From Chrysomallon squamiferum (Eukaryota > Animalia > Mollusca): a stretch of DNA of 64,000 nucleotides. Both the position numbers and the translations under genes were made by a program. The DNA lies in the NCBI GenBank assembly GCA_012295275.1, contig CM022668.1:682001-746000 (forward strand), written 5' to 3'. Positions 1-63,359 of this stretch are shown one piece after another; within the stretch, counting starts at the first letter, position 1; every line of letters begins with the position of its first letter. The notes below the pieces were generated by a model. That model saw only the letters and a program-made list of their open reading frames with translations, was not told the DNA's origin and searched no databases.

Positions 1-371
1 AAACTGCTTGTGTTCTAACATGTAAATGATTGAATAACAGCACTGAGATAAAAGATGATCTGAACAGAGGCAGGAAAGAAAGTTGACCTAAGTTCATACA
101 TTACAGTGGTGATCATTTGTCCAGATAAATTGTGTCATTCATGTCAATTACTGCTGTCAGCAGTGCCACACAAAAATTTGGAAAGCATATTTTGGTTCTT
201 TAATTTCATTTTCCTATCTGCCAGTAATTCATTTATGGCCTCTGCAGGACTTGGTGGCAGCCATTTTGAATTTATACAAATTTTGTACTTGCAGTTGAAA
301 CACTTCCGTCAACACATTTTTAAAATATCAGAGTAGATATAATTTAAAAATATTTACTTTTTAAATTTCAG

Positions 372-1248
372 GAGGTTTCAAGAGGGTTAAAACATTTTGT
401 ACTAAAAAAGATAAGAAGGATAAAGGTAAGGAAATAAGTGGAAACTAAAGATGCTGTATTTATGTATATATTGATATTACCATATTATACATTTATATAT
501 ATGAACTGGTGTGGCTCTGTGTGTAAGTCAGTGTTTGACATCAAACATTTTGAGCATATCCCAGTTGGATACAAACATTTCAGAATCATATATCTGACTG
601 TAAGGTATGATTACATGGCTGATGTTCAAAGGTCAAGCAAACCAATTTTTAGTTTTTTAAGTTTAAATATGGCCGAATTAGTTGAAAACATTTTATAATG
701 GTTACTTTGCCTTTCTGTGTCTTTGTCAACTTAATCAGTAGGCCTAAGGAACACGTAGACTGTTTCACATCATTACTGGAATACCAGTTCATTCAGACTA
801 ATATAACATTTGCGGTTTCAGTTAGGCGGTTGTGATCAAATTGTTATTACCCATCAAATATTGGTTACAAGCTAAAACATACTGTTACTTGACTTTGCCT
901 GCAAATAATATCTATCATTGCTTCAGCAAAAAGTAAAAATTCAGATATTATAACATATCCAGCTGGCATACTGATATTTTGATCTCTGGCACCCAAAAAT
1001 AAAATCTCGGATACTGGGTAAACATTTCTCAAACACTTTACATGCATTAATTAAGACTGCTATTTATTTGTTGATGTATGTGTTTGATGGATACAGGCTG
1101 TTACGTGACCAAGGTTATTAGTTTACCTAAAGAGTGTTGTAATTACAAGTAAAACAAAACTAGATTATCATCAGTGTGCTTGAGGTTTTGTGTGGTTATT
1201 TGATCTATATATATATATATATGTGGTGTGTATGTATGAATACATTCA

Positions 1249-1279
<31 letters not shown>

Positions 1280-2067
1280 CATACATACATACATACATAC
1301 ATACATACATACATACATACATACATACATACATTGTTGTTTATACATACATACAGTATACATACAGTTTCATACATAGGTTGTGTTTTTGTTTATTGTT
1401 TCTATATATTGTGTTTACATACATACATTGTGTTTTTTTGTTGTTTTCTAGTATAGGTTTTTGTTTTTGTTGTTGTTTCTAGTATAATACAGTTGTTGTT
1501 TCTGTAACTTGGGATAAGTTTTTGTTGTTGTTTTTTTTTGTTGTTGTTTCTAGTATAGGTTGTGTTTATAACGTGGAATAATGGGTTTTTTTTTGTGTTT
1601 TTGTTGTTGTTTCTAGTATAGGTTGTGTTTTTGTTGTTGTTTCTATGCATGGTTGAAAGATTTGACCCATTGTTTTTTATGCAGGGTGAAAAGATTAGGA
1701 CTCATTAATTTCTTTACCAAGCAGGATATTCTTTGTATTATTTAAAATAAAATAAAATTTATAAATATCTGAAAATATAGTGTTCCCATAAAAATTCTAA
1801 AATATATGGTTTTTAAATAAAAGTATTCTAAAGTTTTGTTAATTTGTAGGATATTGAGAAAATGTGGAGGTTATTTTTCTTTTCTTCTCATTTAAGAGGA
1901 AAATATAATTAACAACTCTTCTGATTTTGCTATTCAGGTAAGACGAAGGTGATCAACATAGTGAACAATGGAGGAACTCAGTATGTTCAAACTGAAAAGA
2001 ACCAAAAACTGATATATAAGGTATTAGAGCAATTTGTTCTTTCTTCTTTCTTTTCATTTTCTTTTTC

Positions 2068-2098
<31 letters not shown>

Positions 2099-5000
2099 TT
2101 TTTTTTAATTTTTTAATTTTTTGTTCTCTTTTTTAAGTTTGCTTTGGATGGTTTGGTGATAATAAAAATGATTTAATGTTGATTATTAATATAAAATAAT
2201 AATAATGACCACTGTATAGATAACTAACAATGATAGTATATATACATATAATGATTTATACATAGAAACACAGAGATACTACAAGTACTATAATTCCCTT
2301 TTATTTTGTTTATATACATATTACATTTACTAACTTTATAACTGTTTCAAACTTCAGACTTGTGATGGTGACACTAAGGAGCAAACATTATCTGAGGTAT
2401 TTTAATTCATATTTTTCTGTTACTGATACTTTCCAGTTTACAAATTGTTAAATCATTTTTTGGCAAATAAACATTTACACACCAATACATACACACAGAG
2501 AGACACCTATATATCATTATCATAGTTAAAAATAAATTCAGTTCATACATACAGACTTATATTTTTATTTACTTAAATCACTTTAATTTATTTTTCAGCC
2601 TTTGTTGCCTGTTAATCATGATAAACAGACAAGCACAGTAAGTTTTCAAGTAAGAAAACTCAAAATAGTGTTACCAGATACTCAGAATATTGTTTATGAG
2701 TTACATTAAATACTGTTTATCACTTACTCAAAATGTTATTAATTAATCATTGAAATAGCACTGTCAGTTACTCAAAACAGATACTACCAGGTAATCAATA
2801 TACTGTTTATTAATTACTCAAAATACTATTTGTTAGATAATCAAAATACTATTATCAGATACTCAAAATACTGGTTATCAGTTATTCAAGTAATTATTTT
2901 TTATCAGATGTTCAAAATGCTGTTTATCATTACTCAAACCAAAATTTAGTCATTACTCAGAATATTATTTAATAGTAAATTACTGAGTTAATAAAAATAG
3001 TACTTTATCTACTACATGAAATATTAATCAAAATACCATTTTCCTACAGGTACTGCTATTCATTATATTTCAGACTGTAAAAATAATGTTTCATATTAAT
3101 GAGCATTGAAGTAGTTTCTGAGCTATTACTCAAAATACCATGTTATGAGTTCACTCAGAACAGACATTACCATTTGCTCAAAACCAGTTTCATATTACAT
3201 TTCAAGAGCTGACTTTTTGTTTTTTTTAGAGTTGTATGTGACTCAGTTGTTAGAGATATCTGTAACTAAACTTAGTTGTCTGTGACTTAGTTGTTAGAGA
3301 TATCTGTAACTAAACTTAGTTGTCTGTGACTGTTGTTAGAGATATCTGTAACTAAACTTAGTTGTCTGTGACTGTTGTTAGAGATATCTGTAACTAAACT
3401 TAGTTGTCTGTGACTTAGTTGTTAGACATATCTGTAACTAAACTTAGTTGTCTGTGACTTAGTTGTTAGAGATATCTGTAACTAAACTTAGTTGTCTGTG
3501 ACTTAGTTGTTAGAGATATCTGTAACTAAACTTAGTTGTCTGTGACTTAGTTGTTAGAGATATCTGTAACTAAACTTAGTTGTCTGTGACTGTTGTTAGA
3601 GATATCTGTAACTAAACATAGTTGTCTGTGACTTAGTTGTTAGAGATATCTGTAACTAAACATAGTTGTCTGTGACTTAGTTGTTAGAGATATCTGTAAC
3701 TAAACATAGTTGTCTGTGACTTGGTTGTTAGAGATATCTGTGACTTAGTTCTTAGAGATATCTGTAACTAAACTTAGTTGTCTGTGACTGTTGTTAGAGA
3801 TATCTGTAACTAAACATAGTTGTCTGTGACTTAGTTGTTAGTGACTTGTTGTTAAAGATATCTGTAACTAAACTTAGTTGTCTATGACTTAGTTGTTAGA
3901 GATATCTGTAACTAAACTTAGTTGTCTCTGACTGTTGTTAGAGATATCTGTAACTAAACTTAGTTGTCTGTGACTGTTGTTAGAGATATCTGTAACTAAA
4001 CTTAGTTGTCTGTGACTTAGTTGTTAGAGATATCTGTAACTAAACTTAGTTGTCTGTGACTGTTGTTAGAGATATCTGTAACTAAACTTAGTTGTCTGTG
4101 ACTCAGTTGTTAGAGTTGTATATGATTCAGTTGTTAGAGTTGTATGTGACTCAGTTGTTAGAGTTGTATGTGACTCAGTTGTTAGAGTTGTGATGTGACT
4201 CAGTTGTTAGAGTTGTATGTGACTCAGTTGTTAGAGTTGTGTGATGACTCAGTTGTTAGAGCTGTATATGACTCAGTTGTTAGAGTTGTATATGACTCAG
4301 TTGTTAGAGTTGTTTGACTCTGTTGTTAGAGTGTATGTGACTCATTTGTTAGAGTTGTATATGACTCAGTTGTTAGAGTTGTTTGACTCTGTTGTTAGAG
4401 TTGTGTGTTACTCATTTGTTAGAGTGTATGTGACTCAGTTGTTAGAGTTGTATGTGACTCAATTGTTAGAGTTGTATGTGACTCAACTGTTAGAGTTGTA
4501 TATGACTCAGTTGTTAGAGTTGTTTGACTCTGTTGTTATAGTGTATGTGACTCATTTGTTAGAGTTGTATGTGACTCAGTTTTTAACATTGTACAAAACA
4601 TGGGCAGTCTGACTGAAGTCAAATTACAGTACTGATGATTACTACCAATATCCAACATGTAAAGAAAATACTGCACTTTGAGGATCATAGTATAACAATA
4701 AATTTATAGCATAGCATTAAGTTTGTGGTACACATCAGTTGTTACATTCTGACTACAAATACTAACAAAGAGGCATAACCAATTAACAGTCAAGAAAGAC
4801 ATGTTCTGCTTTCTAAAGTTAATTTTAGGACGATTTATCCGTATTTTCTACCTATTACCAGTATGCATACTTATATACACATAGATAACATTTCTAAAAA
4901 CACACGTCTTGGGATAGACATACATATAAATAGACATGGAAACACACAGATACTACAGATACTACAGCTCACTTTTTTTTTTACCTATATGTTTACTGAT

Positions 5001-5141
5001 ATATTTACTAACTTTATAACTGTTTTAAACTTCTGACTTGTGATGGCGACACTAATGAGCAAACATTATTAAAGGTATTTTAACTTATATTTTATTGTAC
5101 CTGATACTTTCCAGTTTACAAATTGTTAAATAGTGTTTGTA

Positions 5142-5178
<37 letters not shown>

Positions 5179-5369
5179 GTATATCATCATAAATAAAAAA
5201 TAAAATCAGTTAATACATACAGAGAGAGAGAGAGAACGCTAACAAATACACATACATACACATTAAATAATTAGATTGTTAAATTTTGATTAGTGTCTGC
5301 TACATGATGGTAATTAAGTTATTTCTATTTCAGGTTCCTACATTTGGAGGAAATATATTTATAACTTGA
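372..5369 (+). CDS. TNFR-superfamily receptor paralog, copy 1: 3' (cytoplasmic) exons only; 5' part lies upstream of the window
   Basis: AG/GT-bounded, phase-compatible exons homologous to copy 2: 372-425 (GGFKRVKTFCTKKDKKDK), 1938-2020 (GKTKVINIVNNGGTQYVQTEKNQKLIYK), 2358-2396 (TCDGDTKEQTLSE), 2599-2637 (PLLPVNHDKQTST), 5334-5369 (VPTFGGNIFIT*). The stop codon is at the same position as in copy 2. Confidence 0.75.
1250..1334. repeat. (TACA)n microsatellite
   Basis: Direct perfect tetranucleotide run; it produces the MYVC/HTYI artefact ORFs. Confidence 0.95.
3228..4585. repeat. Intronic minisatellite: 42-44 bp unit (3240-4100) switching to a 24 bp unit GTTAGAGTTGTATGTGACTCAGTT (4100-4585)
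   Basis: Units read directly from the sequence. It lies in the last large intron of TNFR copy 1. Confidence 0.95.
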
Positions 5370-5539
5370 GTCTTTGACTGCAGGATTACATGTTTTACAG
5401 TGAAATAAAAAAAATATATATTATTTACTGTAAATATACTATATATATGTCATTTAAAATTCCTGATAAAGCAGGAAGTTCTCACACACGTTTGTCTCGT
5501 ATAAATTTCCTCATCAGATTCGTTGTGTTTTTTGTTTAC

Positions 5540-6749: not shown

Positions 6750-8838
6750 AAATAATTATATTATTGTGCTATTAAGGTATACAGTTTATGAAAATGTCCG
6801 TAACATACTGATTATTTACCTATAAACCTTACTTTCATACGGTATAACATCTCGGAATTAATAGTTTCCTGGAACCGCCGCTATTCATATTCCTCAAAAA
6901 TGAATTGTTGGAATTCTTCCAAGCAGCCTTTTTACCACTGCCTCTTTCTTTTTGAATGTGCTATAAAAATAAAAACAACAACAACAACAATAACAATAAC
7001 AACAACAACAACAGTAACTTAATAAAAAGAGTTACTCTAAAATCTACTTACTGTTTTGTTTTTTTATATTCTTAATATTAAAATATTCTGCTACCGCTAA
7101 TCTATCATTCATTCAATCATCCTTTCATACTACTGCTATTACTGCTGGTGGTAATACTATGGCTTTCACTACTATAACTACTGCTGCTATTACTACTACT
7201 ACTACTAGTTCTACAGCTACTATATTGCTACTACCAGAAGAACTACAACTACTAATAATAATTTTCATCAACGACAATGGCACACCCGTTCCCCTTTTCA
7301 AAATCTTCGATCTGACTGGATACCTTCTTTTTTACATATTTTGAGTTTCTGTCGCAAGCAGCGAAACACTCGGCTATGGTGTCGTCTATGGTGAAGTTTT
7401 GTACCAGTGCATCAATGTCCGATATCATCGCACACGTCAGCGGTTTCTGGTCAGAATGTCGTTGTCGCAGAGCCTGAATTGCAAGCATATCTAAAAGAAA
7501 GAAAGAATGAATAAATTGGTAACTGGTAATAAAGGAATGATTAGATGAATAAAAGAATGAAAGCTAGATGAATAAAACAGCAAATTAATAAATGAGCGAA
7601 AGAAAAATATAAATGAGAAAAACAGTGAATTTATAAGTTTAAATGAATACTTGAGAAAATGAACAAAGGGATGAATAAATTTAGTTATCAACACATCAGT
7701 TCTATTCAGTATTCACTGTGAGTGTAGACAGCAAACTCGCTCGAAACACAACCACTCGAGATCAAAAGAAGAAAGGAGAAAAAGTATTCGACAAAAGTGT
7801 CCAGAAGCATTGGTTGTAATAAACTAAAATACACTGAAATAAAATAATGTTTGTTAGAGGATTTAGTTTCGACCTTTATTTATTTCAAATTATTAGTACT
7901 GCTGTTACTACAACTATTACTACTACTACTACTCTATTATTTCTGCTACTACTCATATTCCTACTCCTACTGCTACTACTACTATTAATAATAACAATAA
8001 CAACAACGGCATCAGCAGCAACAATAATAACAACAAGAGTAAAACTGGAAACATATTAAAAAGAAGAAGAAAAAAAAAAACGAATTACAAAAAATAAATA
8101 AATGGAAAAATTATACTTACCTAGCAATGCTTCGGGATTCCTATTCTGTTTCAAAGTGGGACGTTCCATCTCTAGATGGTCCTTCTTTCTTTATCGTGTA
8201 TCTGTTAATATAATTCCAAATTACAATACATTTAATATCAGAAACAGCAACTGTAGGAAATAGAGTACTGGCGGTACTGTGGTGGTAATACAAGATATAG
8301 TTGTAATATTAGTTTGTCTGTAATAGCTATATAGCTCAGTAATACTGGTGACCGTAGTAGAAATAATAGTACTATTAGTAGTAATAGTAGTCGTCTTCTT
8401 CTTCTTTACACATGTAACTCTACACATTAAACAAACATAGACATGCTAAAATACGAAAAATATTGTGCAAACACAAATATACATTTAAAAAACTGCAGAG
8501 AATTAAATGGATATAGAGAGAAAAATAGGTACCCAGACAGACATATATAGAGTATATATTTTTATATTAAAAATACATACCTACATATATATATACACAC
8601 ATACATACAAGCATACATACACATCCACATACATTCACGCATACATGCATACAAACATACACACACATATACATACTTACATACATACATACATACAAAA
8701 GTTAAAGAAAACAAAGTAAAGTTAAATAACAATAATAACAACAACAACAACAACAACAATAATAACAATAATAATAACAATAACAACAACAATAATAATA
8801 CTAATAATAATAATAATAACAGTAATAATAATAATAAT

Positions 8839-11791: not shown

Positions 11792-12929
11792 ATCGTAAAA
11801 ACCAAAACACGAAAATACAAGAAATAACCTGAATTCCGAATGTGCAGGTATTTATTTATTGGTTTCTTTACTACTTATTATATTTTTTTATTATTATTAT
11901 TAATACAATTTTTTCCACTGTTAGCAAAATAAGAAGAAATAAATCATAATTTCATTGAGCGTTTTAAATAGTTTACATGAATGATAAATATAGCCAAAAC
12001 AAAGCCAAAAATATTTAATATTATTATTATTTATTTATTTTTTTTTTTTTAAATATATTTATTATTATTACTAATGCAGGTTCATTTTCATTTTGAAATA
12101 TTTTTCTAATCAGACAAGATTCATATTTTAAACAGGTTTATTATTTACTATTAATATATATGTAACTAAACAGTAGCTCTAGTATAAAACATGTACAGAC
12201 TACTCATTTATGATGAAATATATTTATAGCCTGTACAAATTTATATATATACAGATTTGTTTCTTATTTTATAAAATCTTCCTGTTTCTATAGTGATCAT
12301 TCTCCCATCACATTGAGTGTGTGTTTACAGCAATTAACAAAGAAATCTCTGCATGATGAACTGGAAGGACAACATACTTATTTTAACAAAATAATCCTTT
12401 CTGTCAAAAATAATTGCTAAAATACCAATATAATTAAATATGATTCTTAAAATTGATCATGACATAATATTTATTGTTATTTTCTTGTAGAAAAAACTGA
12501 CTGAAGAACTTATTCTTGTTCGCTTCTTCCAGAAAGCTGTCATCTGACAACACAGAACAGAAAGATTTAATTTGTCAGATTTAACTATGACAGTTGTACA
12601 TGTACAAAATAATATTTGTACATGTAAAAAGTGGCAACTGTATGTGTAAAAAGTGACAACAGTATGTTTAAAAAGTGACCACAGTAATGAGTACTAATAA
12701 AAAGAGTTCTTATAAATTCCTTCTCCACTTTAATTTTTTCATAACTTCTGATCTATGCATGATATAATTAATCTGTTAAAAGTATAAGAGAAAAATGCTG
12801 AGCTTTCTAATTTTCAACACGACCACTGCATTATGGGTACAAATCATAAAATTCAAGCTGTTTTTGTATGTTAAAATTAGTGTACATGTAAAAAGTTACA
12901 ACTGACTGTGTAAAAAGTGACAACTATAC

Positions 12930-15900
12930 ATGCAATCAGTGATGTTTGTCCAGACAAAATGGAAGAGTTGTTCAGGTGAAATAGTCTGTGTATTGTTTGT
13001 TGTAGTAGTTTTGTGTGTTGAGAACTTGGATTGTGTCAATGTGTTAGGTTTAGACTACTGCCCAGCTGTAGGAACACAACACTACAAGGGTCTGGAGTGG
13101 AAATTTTGTCAGAAGACTGAGAGACTGCATTGTCAGGAGTCTAGTGATTCCAGCGTTATTTCATTTTGTCACCAGCCACGAGATTGTGCTCCAGGTCAGT
13201 ACTGTGTATCTACTTCTTTTTGTCAAAGTATCGATAATAACAAGTCACTTTAGGTTATGTGACTGACTAACTCAGATGGTGCTGAGAAATATTCGCCTAC
13301 AATAAATTAGTCTGGTTAATTAATTAATTAAAATTCATGAGTTTTAGCAACTTGTTTAGAAATACAATACAGGTTTAGAACTCATAAAATGCTTCATTTT
13401 GATACATAATACATGTATAGTGGACTGAAGGTATAAGACATATTCAGTGTTTATCGTGCAAAATGACAGAAATAAATCACACTTTGTCCAAATAACTGCA
13501 GATTTTATTCTGATAACAATTTGTAACTTTTTTCATATCAATACTATCAAAGAGATTCTGGTGTCATTTTAAAAGTAATTTTTTTGTTCTTTCTAATGAG
13601 GTATAATGTTTGAGGAAATTAATAATTTTGAAAATTTTGTCACGTACCTACATATAAAATAGAGCATACAGAAACAGAATAACCATTTGTCCCTCCTTCA
13701 GACTTCAACAAAAATAACACAAAATATAGTTGCCTAATATGGTAATGGTAGTAGGAAAAAAATGGCACCCGGAAGAAATGACACTGTGCAGATTTGGAAA
13801 AAATGGCACCTTATTTTTTTTTTCTGTATAGTTGCTTTGATAAAAAAAATAAAAGTACTTTTGAAAATACAGTTTATTCAAGAAATAGTGTTACATACAT
13901 GCATATTAATATATAGCATCACTTAGCCACTTGATTTTGCTTAACAAAGTGTACAATATTATATCAGAGTTTAATATTACACATATACACATATATATAC
14001 ACAGAAATGAATGGGTACATATTTACTGACTTTAATTATGCATACCAGTTAATTATGAGATGTTGGATGGTACTGAAGTAAGCTATTTAGGTTAATAATC
14101 AGTATGTTACCGGTATTTTCCAAAACTGTTCCTTAATAGCACAGTAATATAATTTATTATAATAAACAAAACAAACAAAAAATTATACAAGAGGTATAAA
14201 CTAAATTGTGATTTGTGGTTTAATAAGTTAGGATCAATTTTCTAAGTTAAATAAACATAGCAAACAGTATCTCTAACTATCACTGTGAAAACTTTCCATA
14301 GCTTGATCAAGGCCCTATTAGGGTATGGTTAAGGGCCCTACTGTGTGAGATAAAAACAGTTTACTGTCATAACACACACATACACAGATATATGTTTTTA
14401 CTATTTTATTTGCAGGATTGTATGCTAGACTCTATCCAGATAGGACTATTAAGTGTGAATTGTGTCCTGCCGGGTCCTATCAGCCAGTGGGGGGAGCAAC
14501 ATACTCGTTTATCATTCCTGAGTGCAGCCACCGTCACAGGACATGTGAAACGAAGGGCAAAAAGATGTGTAAGGAGGGTACACCTATAGAGGACACAAAG
14601 TGTAGCTGTGACTATCAACAACAGTATGCCCCATCACCAGAAAACTGTCACTGTTTTACCTTCAATGAACCATGCAAGTGCTTAAAAAGTAATTGTGAAG
14701 GGAAACTCAATTCAAGTGAGTTTTATCTTGTAAAACCTGATTATTAAAAATAGGCAAACTCCATGTTGAAGACAAAGTTCTGTACTGGAAAAAGATTTAC
14801 ACTGATATTATTAACCTTTACTGAAATAAAATAATAATGTGTGACACATAAATGTGATGTAATAAATAGTCTAAATACATTTTCTTTTAAATAACTGGCT
14901 TGTTGTATTAAAAACATTTTTATATGTATACATTACTGTTTTATTAATTTCTGTTATCAACTTGAAAATGTTTATAGTTTGATGTTAGTTGTCCAAAAAT
15001 AAATAAATAAAATAAAACCAATTTTAACATGTACTGGTTTTTAAATTTAGTTTTTGTTTATTCAAAGGTTTTCACTGTGTTCTTGATACTACAACAACTG
15101 AAAAAACAGCTGAAAAATCAACAGCAGAGACTGAAAGGTTTGTTGTTGTTTTTTTGTATGTGTGTGTTTATGCATGCATGAATATGTACATATTTTGTTG
15201 TAGATGAAGTGATAGAATTAATGTGTACATTGTTTCTGTAGATATAGGTTTGTATATAGTTTATGTATGTAATGTGTGTTAAGATAGTTAATTTATATAC
15301 AGACATGTGATTAAGATATTGAAAAATACCATTTTCATAGTAAATATTTTAGAATTTGTTGACTGACATTTTTTTCTTCTTTTTCTTCTTCTTCAGGACA
15401 ACCAGAAAGCCATCAGTATCTGGTAATATCAAACTTCTTTACCTTTTGTTATCTCTCTTTTTTATTTTGTATCTGTCTGTCAGTCTGTCTATTGATCTCT
15501 GTTTGTCTGTCTATATATCTATTTGTCTGTGTGCATGTAAACAGACATCATGTTGAATGTTAATAAATGTCAAATGTTTTGTTGGTTGAATGTGTAAGAG
15601 GATTTGACAGAAACTGATGGCACAACTACTAATAACATGAACAATGACTGGATGATGATACATTCTTACTTAAATATATGACATTAATTTTTAGTGTTAT
15701 TAAATATCTTATCGCAAACCCTTGATGACTGTGAGCAGCAGTATCATCTACATGTTTTAAGAAATCAAGGTGTAGGCTAATTCCTGCTCCAACAAGAAAT
15801 ATAAAGCAGATGTGCCTATCTTAGTGAATTCTTTTTATTTTATTTTATTTGTTTTCCACACAACTTGTTATCACCATTGTAGGAAATACCTGAGAGTGTT

Positions 15901-18676
15901 GACTTGAATACATCATAGTCAGTCTTAATGCAAAATGTTAACTCAGTTAATGCAATGTTCATTTCATGTTAACAAAGAAAACTCTACTGACAGATGTATG
16001 CAGTAAATGTGGGAGTTGTTCAAAGTGTTTAATTTGTTGTGAGACTGTTTACAAATAAAATTATTTTAATTACAGAAATGATGGCATGCTTTTGATCAAA
16101 AATATTTTTAAAATATTACCAGTAAACAATGTTTTTCAAAAATAACATCAGCCCCAATGATCACAAATTGGTCAAGACTGGTAAAAAGAGAACATTTTCC
16201 CAGCACTGATATTATAAAATATAGTTACTTTTTTTAATAGTTTGTAATATTTATTAGAAATAGACAAATCACTTTCTTCATGTTCTGCTTTTATGCAAAA
16301 AAACATTCAGTTCTTTTCAGTTCATTTTTTAACAGGAATTTGATAATTACCTTTTTTAATTATTTATTATTTATGTTGAAAACATTTTTCAATTAATATT
16401 TAAATACTTCTTCAATTTTATTTAGAAACAGAAGAAAGAACTAATACTGTTGGTCTGATTGCTGGTATCATCACTGTTATTGTTGTTGCATTTATCACTT
16501 TTGGAGTAATATGTTATAAAAAAGGTAAGAATATCTAACTTCTTAATTAAACATTTATTTTGTAACTAGTCCATTAGATGTGTGCCAAAAATGGCATATC
16601 CTGTAACAAAATGGCTGCTTCTGGTTAGACTTGAGAGCAGGGCAATCTGAATATCTACATAAAGTTCTGATGATTTTGGGTAAAAAAAAGTGCATAAAAT
16701 GTATTATTGGTGAACAAAAATGTGCCTTCAGAATGACATAATTATGATGTTCCAGAGAGACAATGAGCATGCTAAAAAGCAAAGGATGATTAAAATTACT
16801 GCACAAATTGAATACTCAACACTCTCATTTCAGTTAAGATCACTTGAATTTAATTTAAGGTTTCTGCCTGAATCCCTTTGGTACCTTTTCTCAGATCTCA
16901 AAGTTGTTTTTTCAGAAGGTTTAAGAAAAAATGGCCACCTGTGTGAAGTTTGTTTAGATTCAGAGAAACATCACTTACAAAGGTTTTCTTTTCAAACCAG
17001 GTTTGAATGGGTTCAGAAATAAATATTGAATACATGTCTGACAAATATGGATACGAAAGTATCTCATGAATAAAATTGAAGACTGTGATACTCTACACAA
17101 CTGGTTCATTATGGAGTAATACTGCTTGTGTTACTGTTGATGCTGAACATGAAGATTCGGAATAAGTGTAACAAGAGGTTCTTGAAAATATAAGCATTTA
17201 TGCCATCCCCCTCTGTGCCTCTAATGATGGGTCAGCATTGTATATGTAAAAGTGAATGAAACTGCTTGTGTTCTAACATGTAAATGATTGAATAACAGCA
17301 CTGAGATAAGAGATGATCTGAACAGAGGCAGGAAAGAAAGTTGACCTAAGTTCATACATTACAGTGGTGATCATTTGTCCAGATAAATTGTGTCATTCAT
17401 GTCAATTACTGCTGTCAGCAGTGCCACACAAAAATTTGGAAAGCATATTTTGGTTCTTTAATTTCACTTTCCTATCTGCCAGTAATTCATTTATGGCCTC
17501 TGCAGGACTTGGTGGCAGCCATTTTGAATTTATACAAATTTTGTACTTGCAGTTGAAACACTTCCGTCAACACATTTTTAAAATATCAGAGTAGATATAA
17601 TGTAAAAATATTTACTTTTTAAATTTCAGGAGGTTTCAAGAGGATTAAAACATTTTGTGCTAAAAAAGATAAGAAGGATAAAGGTAAGGAAATAAGTAAA
17701 AATTCAGATATTATAACATATCCAGCTGGCATACTGATATTTTGATCTCTGGCACCCAAAAATAAAATCTCGGATCATTTGTCACCATAAATTGTGTGTT
17801 TCATGTCACCTGCATCTTATCTGCTGTCTGCGATGCCACACAAAAATTTTGAAGGAACATTTTTGTTCTTTAATGACACTGTCCTATCTGCCAGTAATAC
17901 ATTTATGGGGTCTAGAGCAGGCTGTTTAAGAGATAATGGTCTCTACAGGACTTGCTGGCAGCCATTTTGAATTTATATAAATAGTGTACTTCCAGTTTAA
18001 TGGCTTCCGTCAGCATGTTTTTTAAATATCAGAATATGCATAATGTTAAAATATTTATGTTTCAAATTTCAGGAGGTTTCAAGACAGACAAAGCATCTGA
18101 TTCTAGAAAAGGTAAGAAGGATAATGGTAAGGAAATAAGTGGAAACTAAAGATGCTGTATTTATGTATATATTGATATTACCATATTATACATTTATATA
18201 TATGAACTGGTGTGTCTCTGAGTGTAAGTCAGTGTTTGACACCAAAAATGTATTTTAGTATAAATATCTTAAAATATAGTGTTGCCATAAAAATTCTCTA
18301 TTAAAAAAATTGTAAAGTATTGTTAATTTGTAACGAAACATTTCTAGGATATTGAAAAAATGTGGATGTTATTTTTCTTTTTTCTTATTTAAGAGGAAAA
18401 TATAATTAACAGTTGTTGTAATTTTGATATTCAGATAAAGAGACAATGATCAACATAGTGAACAGTAGCGGAACACAGTGTGTTCAGATAGGAAACTACT
18501 CACAAATTAGAATTACGGTATCAGAGGAATTTGTTTCTTTGTTCTTCTTTTCTTTTTCTTTTTAGTTGTCTTTTTTAAGTTTGCTTTGGATAGTTTAGCG
18601 ATAATAACTTATTTAATGTTGATTATTATGATAAAAATAATGATAATGACAATTGTACAGATAATTATCAGTGATA

Positions 18677-18710
<34 letters not shown>

Positions 18711-21700
18711 ATGTAAACGATTTATACATAAAAACACACAGATACTACAGATACTACAACTCACTTTTTTCATTGCCTACACATTTACTGATATATTTAC
18801 TAACTTTATAACTGTTTCAAACTTCAGACTTGTGATGGTGACACTAAGGAGCAAACATTATCTGAGGTATTTTAATTCATATTTTACTGTTACTGATACT
18901 TTCCAGTTTACAAATTGTTAAATAATTTGTTGGTAAATAAACATTTACATACCCATACATACACACAGAGAGACACCTATATATCATTATCATAGTTAAA
19001 AATAAATTCAGTTTATACATGCAGGCTTATATTTTTATTTACTTAAATCACTTTAATTTATTTTTCAGCCTTTGCTGTGTGTTGATCATGATAAACAGAC
19101 AAGCACAGTAAGTTTTCAAGTAAGAAAACTCAAAATAGTGTTACCAGATACTCAGAATATTGTTTATGAGTTACATTAAATACTGTTTATCACTTACTCA
19201 AAATGTTATTAATTAATCACTGAAATAGCACTGTCAGTTACTCAAAACAGATACTATCAGGTAATCAATATACTGTTTATTAATTAGTCAAAATACTATT
19301 TGTTAGATAATCAAAATACTTGTTATCAGTTATTCAAGTAATTATTTTTTTATCAGATGTTCTAAATGCTGTTTATCATTACTGAAACCAAAATTTAGTC
19401 ATTACTCAGAATATTATTTAATAGTAAATTACTGAGTTAATAAAAATAGTACTTTATCTATTACATGAAATATTGCTCTGAATACTATTTTTTTAATGTA
19501 CTGCTATTCGATATATTTTTCATGTGCTTATTACTGATTGTAAAAATAATATTTCATATTAATGAGCACTGAAATAGTTTCTGATCTATTACTCAAAATA
19601 CCATGTTATGAGTTCACTCAGAACAGACATCACCGTTTGCTCAAAATCAGTTTCATCTTACATCCATCACAGTTCGAGAGTTACTGACGTATGTTACTCA
19701 GTTGTTATAGTTGTGTGAGTTGTGTGTTACTCAGTTGTTAGAGTTGTATGTGACTCAGTTGTTAGAGTTGTGTGAGTTGTGTGTTACTCATTTGTTAGAG
19801 TTGTATGTTACTCAGTTGTTAGAGTTGTGTGAGTTGTGTGTGACTCAGTTGTTAGAGTTGTGTGAGTTGTGTGTTACTCACTTGTTAGAGTTGTATGTTA
19901 CTCAGTTGTTAGAGTTGTGTGAGTTGTATGTTACTCAGTTGTTAGAGTTGTATGTTACTCAGTTGTTATAGTTGTGTGAGTTGTGTGTTACTCAGGTGTT
20001 AGAGTTGTATGTTACTCAGTTATTAGAGTTGTATGTAACTCAGGTGTTAGAGTTGTATGTAACTCAGGTGTTAGAGTTGTATGTTACTCAGGTGTTAGAG
20101 TTGTATGTAACTCAGTTGTTAGAGTTGTATGTTACTCAGTTGTTAGAGTTGTATGTTACTCAGGTGTTAGATTGTATGTTACTCAGTTGTTAGAGTTGTA
20201 TGTTACTCAGTTATTAGAGTTGTATGTGACTCAGATGTTAGAGTTGTATGTTACTCAGGTGTTAGAGTTGTATGTAACTCAGTTGTTAGAGTTGTATGTT
20301 ACTCAGTTGTTAGAGTTGTATGTTACTCAGGTGTTAGATTGTATGTTACTCAGTTGTTAGAGTTGTATGTTACTCAGTTATTAGAGTTGTATGTGACTCA
20401 GATGTTAGAGTTGTATGTTACTCAGTTGTTAGAGTTGTGTGTAACTCAGGTGTTAGAGTTGTAAGTTACTCAGTTATTAGAGTTGTATGTAACTCAGGTG
20501 TTAGAGTTGTATGTAACTCAGGTGTTAGAGTTGTATGTTACTCAGGTGTTAGAGTTGTATGTTACTCAGTTATTAGAGTTGTATGTAACTCAGGTGTTAG
20601 AGTTGTATGTTACTCAGTTGTTAGAGTTGTATGTAACTCAGTTTTTAGAGTTGTATGTTACTCAGTTGTTAGAGTTGTATGTTACTCAGGTGTTAGATTG
20701 TATGTGACTCAGTTGTTAGAGTTGTATGTTACTCAGTTATTAGAGTTGTATGTAACTCAGGTGTTAGAGTTGTATGTTACTCAGTTATTAGAGTTGTATG
20801 TAACTCAGGTGTTAGAGTTGTATGTAACTCAGTTGTTAGAGTTGTATGTTACTCAGGTGTTAGAGTTGTATGTAACTCAGTTGTTAGATTGTATGTTACT
20901 CAGGTGTTAGAGTTGTATGTTACTCAGTTATTAGAGTTGTATGTAACTCAGGTGTTTGAGTTGTATGTTACTCAGTTATTAGAGTTGTATGTTACTCAGT
21001 TATTAGAGTTGTATGTTACTCAGTTGTTAGAGTTGTATGTGACTCAGTTGTTAGAGTTGTATGTTACTCAGTTGTTAGAGTTGTATGTTACACAGGTGTT
21101 AGAGTTGTATGTAACTCAGTTGTTAGAGTTGTATGTTACTCAGTTGTTAGAGTTGTATGTTACACAGGTGTTAGAGTTGTATGTAACTCAGGTGTTAGAG
21201 TTGTATGTTACTCAGTTATTAGAGTTGTATGTGACTCAGTTGTTAGAGTTGTATGTGACTCAGTTGTTAGAGTTGTATGTGACTCAGTTGTTAGAGTTGT
21301 ATGTTACTCAGTTGTTAGAGTTGTATGTGACTCAGTTGTTAGAGTTGTATGTGACTCAGTTGTTAGAGTTGTATGTTACTCAGTTGTTAGAGTTGTATGT
21401 TAGAGTTATGTTACTCAGTTGTTAGAGTTGTATGTTACTCAGTTGTTAGAGTTGTATGTGACTCAGTTGTTAGAGTTGTATGTGACTCAGTTGTTAGAGT
21501 TGTATGTGACTCAGTTGTTAGAGTTGTATGTGACTCAGTTGTTAGAGTTGTATGTGACTCAGTTGTTAGAGTTGTATGTTAGACAGGTGTTAGAGTTGTA
21601 TGTTACTCAGTTGTTAGAGTTGTATGTTAGACAGGTGTTAGAGTTGTATGTTAGACAGGTGTTAGAGTTGTATGTTAGACAGGTGTTAGAGTTGTATGTT

Positions 21701-22354
21701 AGACAGGTGTCAGAGTTGTATGTTAGACAGGTATTAGAGTTGTATGTTAGACAGGTGTTAGAGTTGTATGTTACTCAGTTGTTGGAGTTGTATGTGACTC
21801 AGTTGTTAACATTGCCTATGACTTCCAAAACATGGGCAGTCTGAGTGAAGTCAAATTACAGGGATGATGACTATCAATATCCAGCAACATACTGCACTTT
21901 GAGGATCACAAAGTAACAATAAACTCATCGCATTAATTTTGTGGTATGACAGCAATTGTTTCATTTTGACTGCAGACAACAACAAAGAGGCATAAACAAC
22001 ACAGCCTAGAAATATATGTTCTGATTTGTAAAGTTAATTTTAGAACTATTTATCCATGTTTTCCATCGATTACTGGTATACATACACACATATACATGCC
22101 TAACATTTCTAGAAACACAGGTGCCATAGATACAAATATAAATTGACCAGGTTATCACACATTGAAAACACCCAGATATTACAGATACTATAACTCACTA
22201 CATGTTTACTGATATATTTACTAACTTTATAACTGTTTTAAACTTCAGACTTATTGTGAAGCTGATGAGCAAACATTATTAAAGGTATTTTGAATTATAT
22301 TTTATTGTCACTGATACTTTCCAGTTTACAAATTATTAAATAATTTTTAGTAAA

Positions 22355-22408
<54 letters not shown>

Positions 22409-23088
22409 AACACTGGCAAAGAAACATAAACAATTAACACAATCAAGAAATATTTTTTCTTATTTGTAAAATTCATTTTAGAACTAGATACCCATTTTTT
22501 CCACCTTTTACCAGTATACATACACACATACACATACATAACGTTTCTAAAAACACAGGTGTCATAGATACACAAATAAACTGACCAGGTTTTCACACAT
22601 AAAAAACACAGATACTACAGATACTATAACTCACTACATGTTTACTGATATAGTTACTAATTTTATAACTGTTTCAAACTTCAGACTTGTGATGGTGACA
22701 TAAAGGAGCAAACATCATTAAAGGTATATTAATTTATATTTTATTTTCACTGATACTTAGCAGTTTACAAATTGATAAATATTTTTTCTAAACACACACA
22801 CACACACACACACCAATATAGCATTATTATAAATAAAAATTAATTCAGTTTATATGTAATATGGACACACACAAACACACACACACACACACACCAATAT
22901 AGCATTATTGTAAATAAAAATTAATTCAGTTTATATGTAATATGGACACACAAACACAATGATTAAATATACATACATTCATACATGTCAGTTAATTAGA
23001 TTTTTAAATTTTGTTTAGTGTCTGCCACATGAACTTAATAACATAATTTCAGGTTCCTACATTTGGAGAAAATGCAGTTATTACTTGA
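12930..23088 (+). CDS. TNF-receptor-superfamily type I membrane protein, copy 2 (~379 aa): CRDs, TM helix, cytoplasmic RHIM, no death domain
   Basis: Hand-spliced exons: 12930-13194 (start uncertain: 12930, 12942, or acceptor at 12953), 14416-14715, 15068-15137, 15397-15422, 16426-16524, 17630-17683, 18073-18126, 18435-18517, 18828-18866, 19069-19107, 22249-22284, 22685-22723, 23053-23088. All introns are GT-AG with compatible phases; the total is 1140 nt and open. Hydrophobic N-terminus IVCVLFVVVVLC; TNFR-type CRD CELCPAGSYQP...C..HRTC..EGT...DTKC; Thr-rich stalk; TM VGLIAGIITVIVVAFITFGVICY followed by KK. Confidence 0.85.
14416..14715 (+). CDS. Cysteine-rich domain exon of TNFR copy 2
   Basis: Matches ORF 14418-14747. 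Phase 1-1 exon (TGCAG|GA ... TCAA|GTGAG) with the TNFR CRD cysteine spacing. Confidence 0.9.
16426..16524 (+). CDS. Transmembrane exon of TNFR copy 2
   Basis: TTTAG|AAACA ... AAAG|GTAAG; encodes ETEERTNTVGLIAGIITVIVVAFITFGVICYKK. Confidence 0.88.
16560..17625. mobile_element. Probable decayed DNA-transposon sequence in a TNFR intron
   Basis: Higher-complexity, broken coding-like sequence (ORF 16720-17022) with inverted motifs CAAAATGGCTGC (~16607) and GCAGCCATTTTG (~17515). No intact transposase is visible. Confidence 0.3.
18435..18517 (+). CDS. RHIM-encoding exon of TNFR copy 2
   Basis: TTCAG|AT ... ACG|GTATC; encodes DKETMINIVNSSGTQCVQIGNYSQIRIT, with the VQIG core at 18482-18493. Confidence 0.8.
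19688..21810. repeat. 24-bp intronic minisatellite (GTTAGAGTTGTATGTKACTCAGKT), ~2.1 kb
   Basis: Direct tandem units. Because the period is a multiple of 3, it produces the YVTQLLEL artefact ORFs. Confidence 0.97.
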
Positions 23089-24304
23089 GGCTTTGAGTAT
23101 AGGATTAGTTATTCTATTATACTATATTTCCTCATCAAATGAGAAGTTATAAAATGATGAAAAGTCGCCAAGCAGAAAGTTATGAACGTCTCAAGAGAAC
23201 TTGTTAAATGAAACACTGTGAAACAGAAAGTCATCAGTGTCTCATTCAGCATCTGACAAAACATCATCAACCAAAGTCGTGTTTTTCTTGTTCAATGGAT
23301 TGGATCTTAAATTAACTTTCTATGAAATCCAAATGAAATTCCCTGTCAAATCCAAATGATTTTTTTTTTTTTTCCCACAGCACCAAATTTTTCAATCAGA
23401 CCAGTTATTATTTTAACATTTTTTGCCAAAATGGGTGAACCCTCATATCATATTGATAAAGGATACCAAATCTGCCATTTTTGTTTAGCTTGGAAATATT
23501 GGTCCTTTTGACCCTGAGTGACACACCACACTTGAGATGACCTTTATTGAAATTTAATCCCAAGTTGATTTTTTCCTGGGTGTAATATTTTTTGTTTAGC
23601 CACAATATTTTAAAAATGCACATACATAAATAACATTTTCACATCTGAATAAAAAATGATCATTCAGGTGAGCATTGTACAATCCATGCAGGTATGCATT
23701 TTTTAAAATTATTCATGTTATACCCATTTTATATGTGAACATGCATACATATGCAAATGTCTTACTTTGATCAAGAGAGATTTTCCTAGCATCCAGAATT
23801 TTTTTTAAATGAGAAAATGAATTTCACATCAGACATAAGGGGAAATAAATCTGTAAGGTGTAAACATCAGTTACATTTGTTATCAGATGTAGTAATGTGT
23901 ACTAATATAAAAGATTTTTATAAAGTCCTTGTGTAATTCTTTTTTTTTCATAACTCGTGATCTATGTATGCTAGAATTAATTTGTTAAAAGAATAAGAGA
24001 AAATTGAGATTTTTAATTTCAACATTGTTGTATATAAATGGTGCTATGGTTAACATTGTTACAGTTTACAATGTTTAGGGGAACCGGAATAAGGGAGATA
24101 ATATTATATGACGTCACCGGGTGCATGCGTTAGTTTTTGTTCGTAACCATTTTTTAAACGTTTGAAAACTGAAAACTGAAATGAACTTTATGTTTTAATG
24201 TTAAAACATAACAAACATGACTACTGCATTATGGGTACAAATCAAGAAATTCAAGCTGCTTTTTCAGACCCCTTCCATCTGAAATTATCGAAGATTGACG
24301 CGCG

Positions 24305-26706: not shown

Positions 26707-26779
<73 letters not shown>

Positions 26780-28048
26780 GTGGAGCAGCGTGATAAAACT
26801 GGACTTACTTAAAAATTAAACTGTAGTTGATCCGTTCATGCTTTTCCCGTTCCAAAATTTCCTTTACCTCTGTTTAACGTCACCCAGGCAGCGGCAGAAG
26901 CGGTTTACTATTTAATGTTACATTAACATTTTATTTATTTATGTATTTTTTTACCTTCGATTGAGCTAGCAAATATATAAATATATATCATTTTAATTCT
27001 TGCATAAAAACAAATGTATTTATAATTAATATGTATATATGTATGAGTGTATGTGTGTGTATATATTGATTTTTGTCGTAATTTATAAGTTTTATCATTG
27101 AATAATTTTTATAATGAATTTTATCATCTAGTCTTTGATAACCACTCATCACAAGGCTTTTGTTGTTTCTTTGATTAATTCTTCTCTTTCTGCTAACCAT
27201 TACTTGCTAAATGTAATGCTTTATTACATATTTAACTCTCTCTTTTTTTTAACCAAAACAAATAGCAAGGAATAAAATCAGTTAAACAATAAAATAAATC
27301 ACAAATAATCTTTAGATTTCGATTATGTAAAAATATTCATAATTTTCTCTACATGACAAATTCGCTTTTTATGTAAATGAGAATTATCTCCCTTTAGGAA
27401 ATGTCGAAGCTAGAAAGTAAAATAACGTAGTATTCAGTTGATAACATACGATACGTATAACGATTTTGTTACATGAACAATGATACGACACCATGTATTC
27501 TGTTTACTAGACTGACAAAAGCGCCGGCACGAATCCCAATGTCTGTCTGTTTCAGTGCCCACTCTTCTGTTTCCGCTACAAAAGCCTTGTGATGAGTGGT
27601 TTTCAAAGACTAGATTATGTATTTCCGAAATATATTCTGTTCTGTTTGTTGACAGCAGCTTATACATGTAATTAACATAACATAATCATTCTGTCGAATT
27701 CATTCATTCATAAAATATGTATTCAATGATAAAATTCTTATAAATTACGACAAAAATCAATATATACATACACATACACTCATACATATATACATATTAA
27801 TTATAAATACATTTGTTTTACTATGCAAGAATTAAAATGATATATATTTATATATTTGCTAGCTCAATCGAAGGTAAAAAAATACATAAATAAATAAAAT
27901 GTTAATGTAACATTAAATAGTAAACCGCTTCTGCCGCTGCCTGGGTGACGTTAAACAGAGGTAAAGGAAATTTTGGAACGGGAAAAGCATGAACGAATCA
28001 ACTACAGTTTAATTTTTAAGTAAGTCCAGTTTTATCACGCTGCTCCAC

Positions 28049-28093
<45 letters not shown>
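26707..28093. repeat. Large inverted repeat: arms ~26707-27120 and ~27700-28093, bounded by (CT)n/(AG)n
   Basis: CGTTAGTGGAGCAGCGTGATAAAACTGG... at 26775 is the reverse complement of ...CCAGTTTTATCACGCTGCTCCACTAACG ending near 28053. The arms are nearly identical over ~400 bp. Confidence 0.92.
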
Positions 28094-28117
<24 letters not shown>

Positions 28118-38058: not shown

Positions 38059-54396
<16,338 letters not shown>

Positions 54397-61774: not shown

Positions 61775-62450
61775 ACACAATACAATTTCTTTTCAGATAT
61801 CCCAGTTACAATTCGTCCGAAATTTCTAAAAGGTTATTTCAGATATTAAAACGTGTTCTATGTAAAATATATTTTATACAATAAACTCATCAGATATGGT
61901 TACAGTGTTGACGGTACATATACCATGTTTACTTTAAATAGCTGCATTTATCTTTGCTATTATTTTCTGTACCTTTATCGATATTATCTCTGAATAGTTA
62001 TTTACATTTATCAAAATCACTCTTCTATATTTTTTATACCTTTCTGTATTTTATCGGCACTACATTTCTTCACAAATGTCTACGTTACTTCTCAGTAAAT
62101 ATATCTAGAATTCCTTTCTATAACGTGCCAGACGTTCCTGTTATGTACAGGTAAATGGTCATGTGCAAATAAACGAAATATACGATTTTTTAATTTATGT
62201 CAGCGAACAACGTGCTTCCGTAAACTGACAACAAAACTTCAGTAATTTAGGGAGCAATTATTCGTTTCTGCACGATCTGTCTACTTTTGCTTTACCTGTG
62301 TATCTATTCTTTACTTTACATATTTACTGTATATTTAATTCATTAATGTTATTTTTCAGTTAGTTTCTGCCGTGCAGATAATGATTTCTGGATCATACGT
62401 CAGTTCGATCGTTATGTGATTCTGGGAAACATATTATCAAACAAACAGCA

Positions 62451-63359
62451 ATGGCAAAACGTGGCAAAGGACCAAAGAGTTATTCATCTAGCTATACTAC
62501 TTACTATGCCAGTTCGGCTTACGTATCGAAAACTCCATCGACGTATACACAATATATATCTGGTTATGGATCGGATTATGGATCCTATCCTAGATCAGAT
62601 TATGGATCGTATACCGGATCAGATTATGGACCGTATCCCAGATCCGATTATGGATATAACTATGAACCTGATTATGGATCTAATTATGGATCTGATTATG
62701 GACCTGGTTATGGATCTGAATATGGGTCTGATTATGGATCTAATTATGGATCTGATTATGGATCTGGTTATGGATCTGGTTACGGTCCTAATAGTGGTCC
62801 TAATGAAGGTCCTGATAATGGACCTAATAGTGGTCCTGATAAAGGTCCTGATAATGGACCTGGTGGTAATGATCCAAAGAATCAAAGTACTGCATATTCT
62901 GACTACGATAGAGGCGCTCTGAATCCTAACAAACAATCCGCAAATAATTTCAGTTGCAATATATGCTGCTGTCCACCAGGTAACAGTAATTTGGTTCCTT
63001 TAGTAACCATGACGCCTCCGTCTCCTCCTGCACCTACCTATAGATACCAATATGTTGAGTGCTCACCGTCGTGTGTTGGATTACGAACTATGTGTCCACC
63101 AGTTTCCGGAGAAAACGGTCGTAAAAGTCTTCTGTCTAGCTGTTGTCCAGTCCAGAATCCGATGACAAGCAGGAACAGCGCTTATTTGGCTCTTGCCGCG
63201 GATATCATGTCCAACATTATGAAAAGGCAGATAATGTACACCTTATGTTGCTTGGACGGGGTCGCACCAACAGGAATCGACCCCAGACTTTTCGAAGATT
63301 TCTGTAAACGATATAATCCCGTTAAATTAACACCTCCTGGACAAATAAAAAAAGAGTAA
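62451..63359 (+). CDS. Uncharacterised 302-aa protein with G/S/D/Y tetrapeptide repeats, GPDN repeats and a Cys/Pro-rich C-terminus
   Basis: Uninterrupted ORF with coding-like composition. ATG in GCAATGG context, preceded by in-frame stops (62361 onward). Acceptor TTTCAG at 62359 suggests a 5' UTR intron; AATAAA signals follow the stop. Confidence 0.8.
   Translation: MAKRGKGPKSYSSSYTTYYASSAYVSKTPSTYTQYISGYGSDYGSYPRSDYGSYTGSDYGPYPRSDYGYNYEPDYGSNYGSDYGPGYGSEYGSDYGSNYGSDYGSGYGSGYGPNSGPNEGPDNGPNSGPDKGPDNGPGGNDPKNQSTAYSDYDRGALNPNKQSANNFSCNICCCPPGNSNLVPLVTMTPPSPPAPTYRYQYVECSPSCVGLRTMCPPVSGENGRKSLLSSCCPVQNPMTSRNSAYLALAADIMSNIMKRQIMYTLCCLDGVAPTGIDPRLFEDFCKRYNPVKLTPPGQIKKE

Follow-up and report, generated by a model that had tools for sequence, protein, structure and literature searches.

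A spliced TNFR-type receptor gene of Chrysomallon squamiferum with a RHIM-like motif in its cytoplasmic tail

The receptor gene and its transcripts

The window analysed here (64,000 nt of AT-rich eukaryotic DNA from Chrysomallon squamiferum, contig CM022668.1) contains, at 12930..23088 of the forward strand, a gene encoding a predicted receptor of tumour necrosis factor receptor (TNFR) type with a RHIM-like motif in its tail, preceded by the 3' part of a tandem paralogue (Table 1). The gene model comprises 13 exons and 383 amino acids, from an ATG at 12930 to a stop codon at 23086-23088; its reading frame has no internal stop, all its introns present GT-AG borders, and AATAAA signals lie downstream of exon 13 at 23648 and 23844. 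The predicted protein includes, in this order, a hydrophobic N-terminal segment (residues ~18-36, hydropathy 2.6), 18 ectodomain cysteines, a Thr-rich stalk, one transmembrane (TM) helix (residues ~231-249, hydropathy 2.9) and a K/D/T/G-rich, low-complexity cytoplasmic tail. From hydropathy alone we infer a type I membrane topology (signal peptide and one TM helix). An earlier annotation made from the DNA letters (the sequence-only reading) had proposed a spliced gene with this signal/cysteine-rich domain (CRD)/TM/tail order, and the 13-exon model and the RNA joints bear it out; the tail, estimated there at ~125 amino acids, is present and counts 133 amino acids from residue 251.

The gene is real and spliced. 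Transcripts came from four RNA runs (X1-X4) of one study, whose contigs were matched to 12800-18525 at 88% likeness; the evidence consists of the GT-AG joints listed here, the VQIG reading of the motif itself comes from the genomic sequence, and coverage of the gene model ends at 18525, exons 10-13 being predicted from sequence. Two joints were present in all four runs: 14715>15068 (exons 2 and 3) and 15422>16426 (exons 4 and 5). Others were found in three runs (17683>18073, exons 6 and 7) or in two (13194>14416, exons 1 and 2; 16524>17630, exons 5 and 6, a junction that the sequence-only reading had proposed for checking), and 15137>15397 (exons 3 and 4) was not among the joints listed. The series 18126>18435>18828, proposed in the same way, was recovered in part: the modelled donor of exon 7 is joined to exon 8 (18126>18435) in one of the four runs, an alternative in-frame donor (18111>18435) is used in two, and the 18828 side is represented by loose contig ends behind 18517 that match exon 9 in three. 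A uniform depth of 16 at the joints linking exons 4 to 8 in run X4 suggests that a single contig holds them. The RNA also contains forms in which exon 2 or exon 6 is skipped in frame, and the RHIM-like exon 8 is kept in frame in every isoform observed. The RNA contigs differ from the window at ~4% of exon-2 letters, and may therefore be alleles or paralogues.

Two unusual joints were also recorded: 13194>15068, in frame, in the contig skipping exon 2, which removes the CRD core; and a back-joint from 15132 to 12884, corresponding to tandem read-through or to a circular form.

The ectodomain and its mollusc relatives

The ectodomain is, by profile and predicted fold, of a divergent TNFR-CRD type. 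When exon 2 was compared by phmmer with 1.84 billion representatives, 19 matches reached E<=0.001, one of which (P0005, repetitive, 1429 amino acids) was removed as spurious; ten were looked up, and the seven with a species name were all molluscan, the best being an abalone protein. All 18 ectodomain cysteines align with those of this abalone protein (P0001; E 4e-27 in a local search). The family profile (15 sequences) matches OPG at E 1.6e-4, and its remaining five matches are all CD40. The predicted model of the abalone relative (ectodomain pLDDT, the per-residue model confidence, mostly 70-95) gave 12 matches in Foldseek (E<=0.001), every one belonging to the TNFR superfamily (TNFRSF), and VIA-align also ranked TNFRSF chains first, weakly (Z 5.1, root-mean-square deviation 4.4 over 92 residues). 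The model of exon 2 itself placed CD40 and other TNFRSF proteins on top in Foldseek, more weakly (best CD40, E 0.012), and the Atlas neighbours, clusters of TNFR_c6 at 0.86 or less, are a lead only. Pfam TNFR_c6 gave no match in exons 1 or 2, nor in the 19 phmmer relatives; the CRDs proposed in the sequence-only reading were thus recovered by profile and fold comparison, but not by the Pfam scan. No homologue was retrieved by a word-based search with exon 2, nothing relevant by a PDB sequence search with exon 2 alone, and no match by metagenome scans for the ectodomain and for the paralogue exons. The ligand of such an ectodomain need not be TNF, and the bypass of the TRADD/RIPK1 step proposed in the sequence-only reading is hypothetical.

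A mussel-type profile search retrieved 223 proteins, of which 120 were listed (mostly mussel, with many fragments). The tails of the listed members carry at least ROC-COR, nSTAND3-ankyrin, HEPN, GTPase, strings of Ig and other domains (P0033-P0151); judged from these sequences, the ectodomain belongs to a large mollusc receptor family with interchangeable cytoplasmic modules. The nearest relatives, from three abalone species, also have tails free of death domains, and the abalone tail is mostly below pLDDT 50. Three abalone proteins (P0001 residues 374-390, P0031, P0032) share the motif hydrophobic-x-I-x-A-x-N-V-I-[L/V]-G, which is the most beta-prone stretch in each tail. This VxxG motif is 65% identical between two abalones, compared with 44% for the whole tail, several other tail windows being better kept, and Pfam RHIM does not match it. 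It is a candidate cryptic RHIM, comparable with the motif of the window by analogy only.

The RHIM-like motif, the tail and the paralogue

Exon 8, read in phase 1, gives the motif quoted in the sequence-only reading: an upstream hydrophobic strand and then VQIG at 18482-18493. The other two frames were rejected, both containing stops, and the RNA joints fit phase 1, confirming the proposed in-frame inclusion of the exon. The core satisfies the published RHIM consensus tetrad (V/I)-Q-(V/I/L/C)-G (PMC13506858), RHIM (PF12721) is the sole family of the 24,736 in Pfam matching the exon, and the fifth position past the Gly is hydrophobic, as it is in the RIPK1 string cited in the sequence-only reading. 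In 200,000 shuffles of the tail, the tetrad occurred in 1.2%, the tetrad plus upstream strand in 0.15% and the full pattern in none, the last two patterns having been defined after seeing the sequence; a six-frame scan of the window found four tetrads, of which only that at 18482-18493 carried the full pattern. The motif is the 17-mer of highest beta-propensity in the K/D/T-rich tail, which would fit the setting described for RHIMs within unstructured flanks (PMC4262963). A four-copy complex prediction with a 32-residue motif peptide (four of its residues coming from the flanking introns) scored 0.02 and is neutral. A resemblance to RHIMs beyond chance is supported.

Several observations weigh against the motif being a RHIM. 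The Pfam RHIM score is 11.8 bits (E 0.19, ~8e-6 per model), so that the HMMER check proposed in the sequence-only reading failed at the cut-off of 20, and the alignment spans profile positions 4-17 of 22; a PDB sequence search with exon 8 gave no match to solved RHIM structures; the spacer from the Asn to the core has six residues, compared with three in the RIPK1 and RIPK3 strings of that reading; and, of the Asn-x-apolar described as conserved after the core (PMC4262963), the Asn is replaced by Ser and the apolar Ile is kept. In the paralogue the I-G has disappeared from the core (VQTE), and codons 18-27 of its exon all differ. No precomputed RHIM domain was found among the 120 listed of the 223 family members, mostly mussel, and no tetrad with upstream strand behind the TM among the 50 listed TM-bearing members, so the search for the CRD+TM+RHIM architecture in relatives came back empty within this set; homology of the abalone VxxG motif to that of the window was not borne out either (profile score -1.7, no BLAST alignment). 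What stands of the RHIM claim is the VQIG tetrad, the upstream strand and the beyond-chance resemblance, but not a Pfam match at the cut-off nor the post-core Asn.

The rest of the tail agrees with the absence of a death domain claimed in the sequence-only reading. No death-fold Pfam match was found in 100 of the 122 downstream plus-strand open reading frames (ORFs) of at least 42 amino acids (22 low-complexity ORFs were omitted), and the paralogue terminates at the same stop as the main gene. Four patterns of canonical TRAF2/3/6 motifs gave no match in the tail, leaving the RHIM-like motif as its only recognisable signalling element. Each of three related mini-exons (exons 9, 11 and 12) encodes an xEQT[L/S] word. 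Together with the duplicated exons 6 and 7, these mini-exons show growth of the tail by exon duplication, and long intronic tandem repeat arrays lie at matching sites in both paralogues (19680-21810 and 3220-4590).

The paralogue, which the sequence-only reading had overlooked and which has an AATAAA at 5404, is apparently expressed too: a loose end in run X2 matches the start of its counterpart of exon 8. Two further variants of the exon-8 start are present in runs X1 and X3, indicating more copies or alleles. The counterpart of exon 8, which has no Pfam match, is the most diverged tail exon (67% identity, compared with 86-100% for the others), and it is also less conserved than its flanking introns (67% versus 90%, Fisher p 1.3e-4, gaps ignored), while one intron-plus-exon block is 98.9% identical between the paralogues. 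Positive selection on exon 8 was considered and not borne out (dN/dS 0.88 overall and 3.6 for codons 18-27, p 0.4). The conservation on which the sequence-only reading had staked the motif is partly contradicted: the paralogue keeps the strand and has lost the core, no canonical RHIM appeared in the relatives from other species, and the search brought up no true orthologue whose tail could be aligned. The VQTE paralogue can be read in two directions, as a failure of simple conservation and as a likeness to paired receptors.

Table 1 Features of the receptor gene and of its tandem paralogue (window coordinates).
Feature	Coordinates	Strand	Evidence
Tandem paralogue, 3' part (5' part upstream of the window)	1..5410	+	Self-BLAST, sequence
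Paralogue tail exons	372-425, 1938-2020, 2358-2396, 2599-2649, 5334-5369	+	Self-BLAST, splice comparison
Paralogue equivalent of exon 8: retains the INIVN strand, core VQTE	1938..2020	+	Sequence comparison
Paralogue exon copy with TG acceptor	5036-5074	+	Sequence
Exon 1: ATG, hydrophobic segment of signal type, N-terminal cysteine-rich module	12930..13194	+	RNA joint to 14416; 5 Cys of the mature part align with abalone P0001
Exon 2: TNFR-CRD-like core	14416..14715	+	phmmer, profile, Foldseek, RNA joints; skipped in frame in one RNA contig
Exon 3: Thr-rich stalk and the last Cys of the ectodomain	15068..15137	+	Acceptor joint in 4/4 RNA runs
Exon 4: stalk mini-exon	15397..15422	+	Donor joint in 4/4 RNA runs
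Exon 5: TM helix and basic stop-transfer residues	16426..16524	+	Hydropathy; RNA joints on both sides
Exon 6: Lys-rich juxtamembrane tail exon	17630..17683	+	Splice model, RNA joints
Exon 7: copy of exon 6 (76% identity), with 18111 as alternative in-frame donor	18073..18126	+	RNA joints, sequence comparison
Exon 8: RHIM-like exon; motif 18449-18508, core VQIG 18482-18493	18435..18517	+	Pfam RHIM 11.8 bits, shuffles, in-frame RNA splicing
Exon 9: first of three related xEQT[L/S] mini-exons	18828..18866	+	RNA loose ends behind 18517 in 3/4 runs
Exon 10 (predicted)	19069..19119	+	Splice sites and phase; 92% identical copy in paralogue
Exon 11 (predicted): exon 9-type repeat	22249..22284	+	Gene model
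Exon 12 (predicted): exon 9-type repeat, 85% identical	22685..22723	+	Gene model, sequence comparison
Exon 13 (predicted): end of the coding sequence, with stop codon	23053..23088	+	Same exon and stop in paralogue at 5334-5369

Elsewhere in the window there are: a nuclear receptor gene (45700-54021, forward strand) with C4 zinc fingers and a ligand-binding domain, which its motifs suggest to be E75/Rev-erb-like, and whose following long open exons (51721-52728 and 52840-54021) suggest an unusually long C-terminal extension; an inverted repeat (26714-27119 / 27702-28114; ~410 bp, 97.8% identical), likely a mobile element; an ORF of 324 amino acids (62385-63359, forward strand) with Gly/Tyr/Pro/Asp repeats and a Cys-rich end; and a protein-like ORF of 103 amino acids (7252-7563, reverse strand) lying between both paralogues on the opposite strand. 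Neither ORF has a Pfam match.

Proposed signalling and comparison with known systems

The reading we favour, at about even odds, is that the tail motif would, upon clustering of the receptor by its ligand, nucleate RHIM-type amyloid with a cytosolic RHIM partner. A ligand would cluster the single-pass receptor; the clustered tail motifs would stack, seeding the amyloid; and the amyloid would recruit a cytosolic partner, which might be a molluscan RIPK1-like kinase or an adaptor of the CARD/RHIM or IMD-like type. Judging by zebra-mussel RIPK1 and by the IMD pathway, both taken as analogies, NF-kB would be a more probable output than necroptosis. The RHIM of zebra-mussel RIPK1 is reported to be required for maximal NF-kB activation (PMC12119088), and a bivalve iridovirus is reported to encode a CARD+RHIM protein that resembles proteins of bivalves (PMC12452177); RHIM signalling does occur in molluscs, which have plausible partners. 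In this scheme the VQTE paralogue would either lack nucleation or have another specificity, and the cluster would be akin to a set of paired receptors.

Two other explanations have to be weighed. Exon 8 may encode a short beta-rich self-association or adaptor-binding element, similar to the IVVY motif of RANK, the RHIM tetrad being a degenerate or incidental match in a fast-evolving tail. Its appeal is that the INIVN-type strand, unlike the tetrad, is common to both window copies and the further RNA variants, that the Pfam score, the spacing and the post-core residue all deviate from a RHIM, and that in RANK, a vertebrate TNFR free of death domains, a short hydrophobic cytoplasmic motif is reported to give ligand-independent oligomerisation (PMC4076115); we consider it rather unlikely, given an exact tetrad behind the expected strand (0.15% in shuffles), the RIPK1-like hydrophobic residue past the Gly, and RHIM as the only Pfam family matching the exon. 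It is quite improbable, in our view, that the RHIM-like exon is dispensable and that signalling, if any, depends on different parts of the tail (for instance the three xEQT[L/S] mini-exons, serving as non-canonical TRAF sites), or that the protein is a ligand-binding decoy. The xEQT exons are indeed far better kept in the paralogue than the RHIM-like exon, and TNFRs free of death domains are reported to be common in oyster (PMC4346834); but this identity may reflect recent duplication or gene conversion, as the 98.9% identical intron-plus-exon block suggests, the four canonical TRAF patterns have no match, and the RHIM-like exon is present in all the spliced forms observed.

Should the motif be functional as proposed, RIPK/NF-kB signalling would be open to a TNFR-type receptor that dispenses with death domain, TRADD and TRAF. 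In a lophotrochozoan, it would then connect the TNFR-RIPK pathway of vertebrates with the receptor-amyloid (PGRP-LC/IMD) pathway of arthropods; molluscan RIPK1-like RHIMs would have a candidate upstream partner, and VQIG and VQTE would form a natural wild-type/mutant pair. A wider and more tentative proposal is that a mollusc TNFR-type cluster nucleates RHIM amyloid at the membrane and diversifies into RHIM-on (VQIG) and RHIM-off or re-specified (VQTE) forms, possibly driven by viral RHIM mimics, gastropod relatives using a cryptic VxxG form. If true, a TNFR ectodomain and PGRP-LC/IMD-type amyloid signalling would be joined in one protein.

Direct nucleation of RHIM-type amyloid by a receptor is known in kind: receptors with RHIM-like motifs have been reported for PGRP-LC, shrimp SRB2 and insect STING (PMC13506858, PMC4262963). 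No TNFR with a RHIM was found in the open literature (subscription journals being outside this scope, and a precedent in amphioxus being possible); none of the papers searched describes a RHIM in the tails of TNFRSF members lacking a death domain (CD40, RANK, OX40), and a description of oyster TNFRs does not mention one (PMC4346834). With CD40, RANK, OX40 and the OPG ectodomain, the receptor shares a CRD-like ectodomain by profile and fold, a single TM and a tail that is probably unstructured; unlike them, it has no Pfam TNFR_c6 match or canonical TRAF motif, and it carries extra family-specific cysteine modules. The abalone protein XP_046377158 and its relatives and the mussel members have the same ectodomain, signal segment, stalk and TM, whereas their tails are unalignable: long, disordered and with VxxG in abalone, and bearing ROC-COR, nSTAND3-ankyrin, HEPN or Ig in mussel.

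The motif shares with the RHIMs of RIPK1, RIPK3, TRIF and ZBP1, including molluscan RIPK1-like proteins, the tetrad, the upstream hydrophobic strand and the low-complexity setting; it differs in being sub-threshold, with a longer spacer and no post-core Asn, in standing in a membrane receptor, and in being lost in the tandem paralogue. Drosophila PGRP-LC and shrimp SRB2 are likewise membrane receptors, whose cytoplasmic RHIM-like motif reportedly assembles into amyloid together with an adaptor (PMC4262963, PMC13506858), a mechanism that is a proposal here; these, however, serve pattern recognition, their motifs being of the cryptic VxxG kind and their ectodomains unrelated, whereas the receptor of the window combines a TNFR-type CRD with a canonical VQIG.

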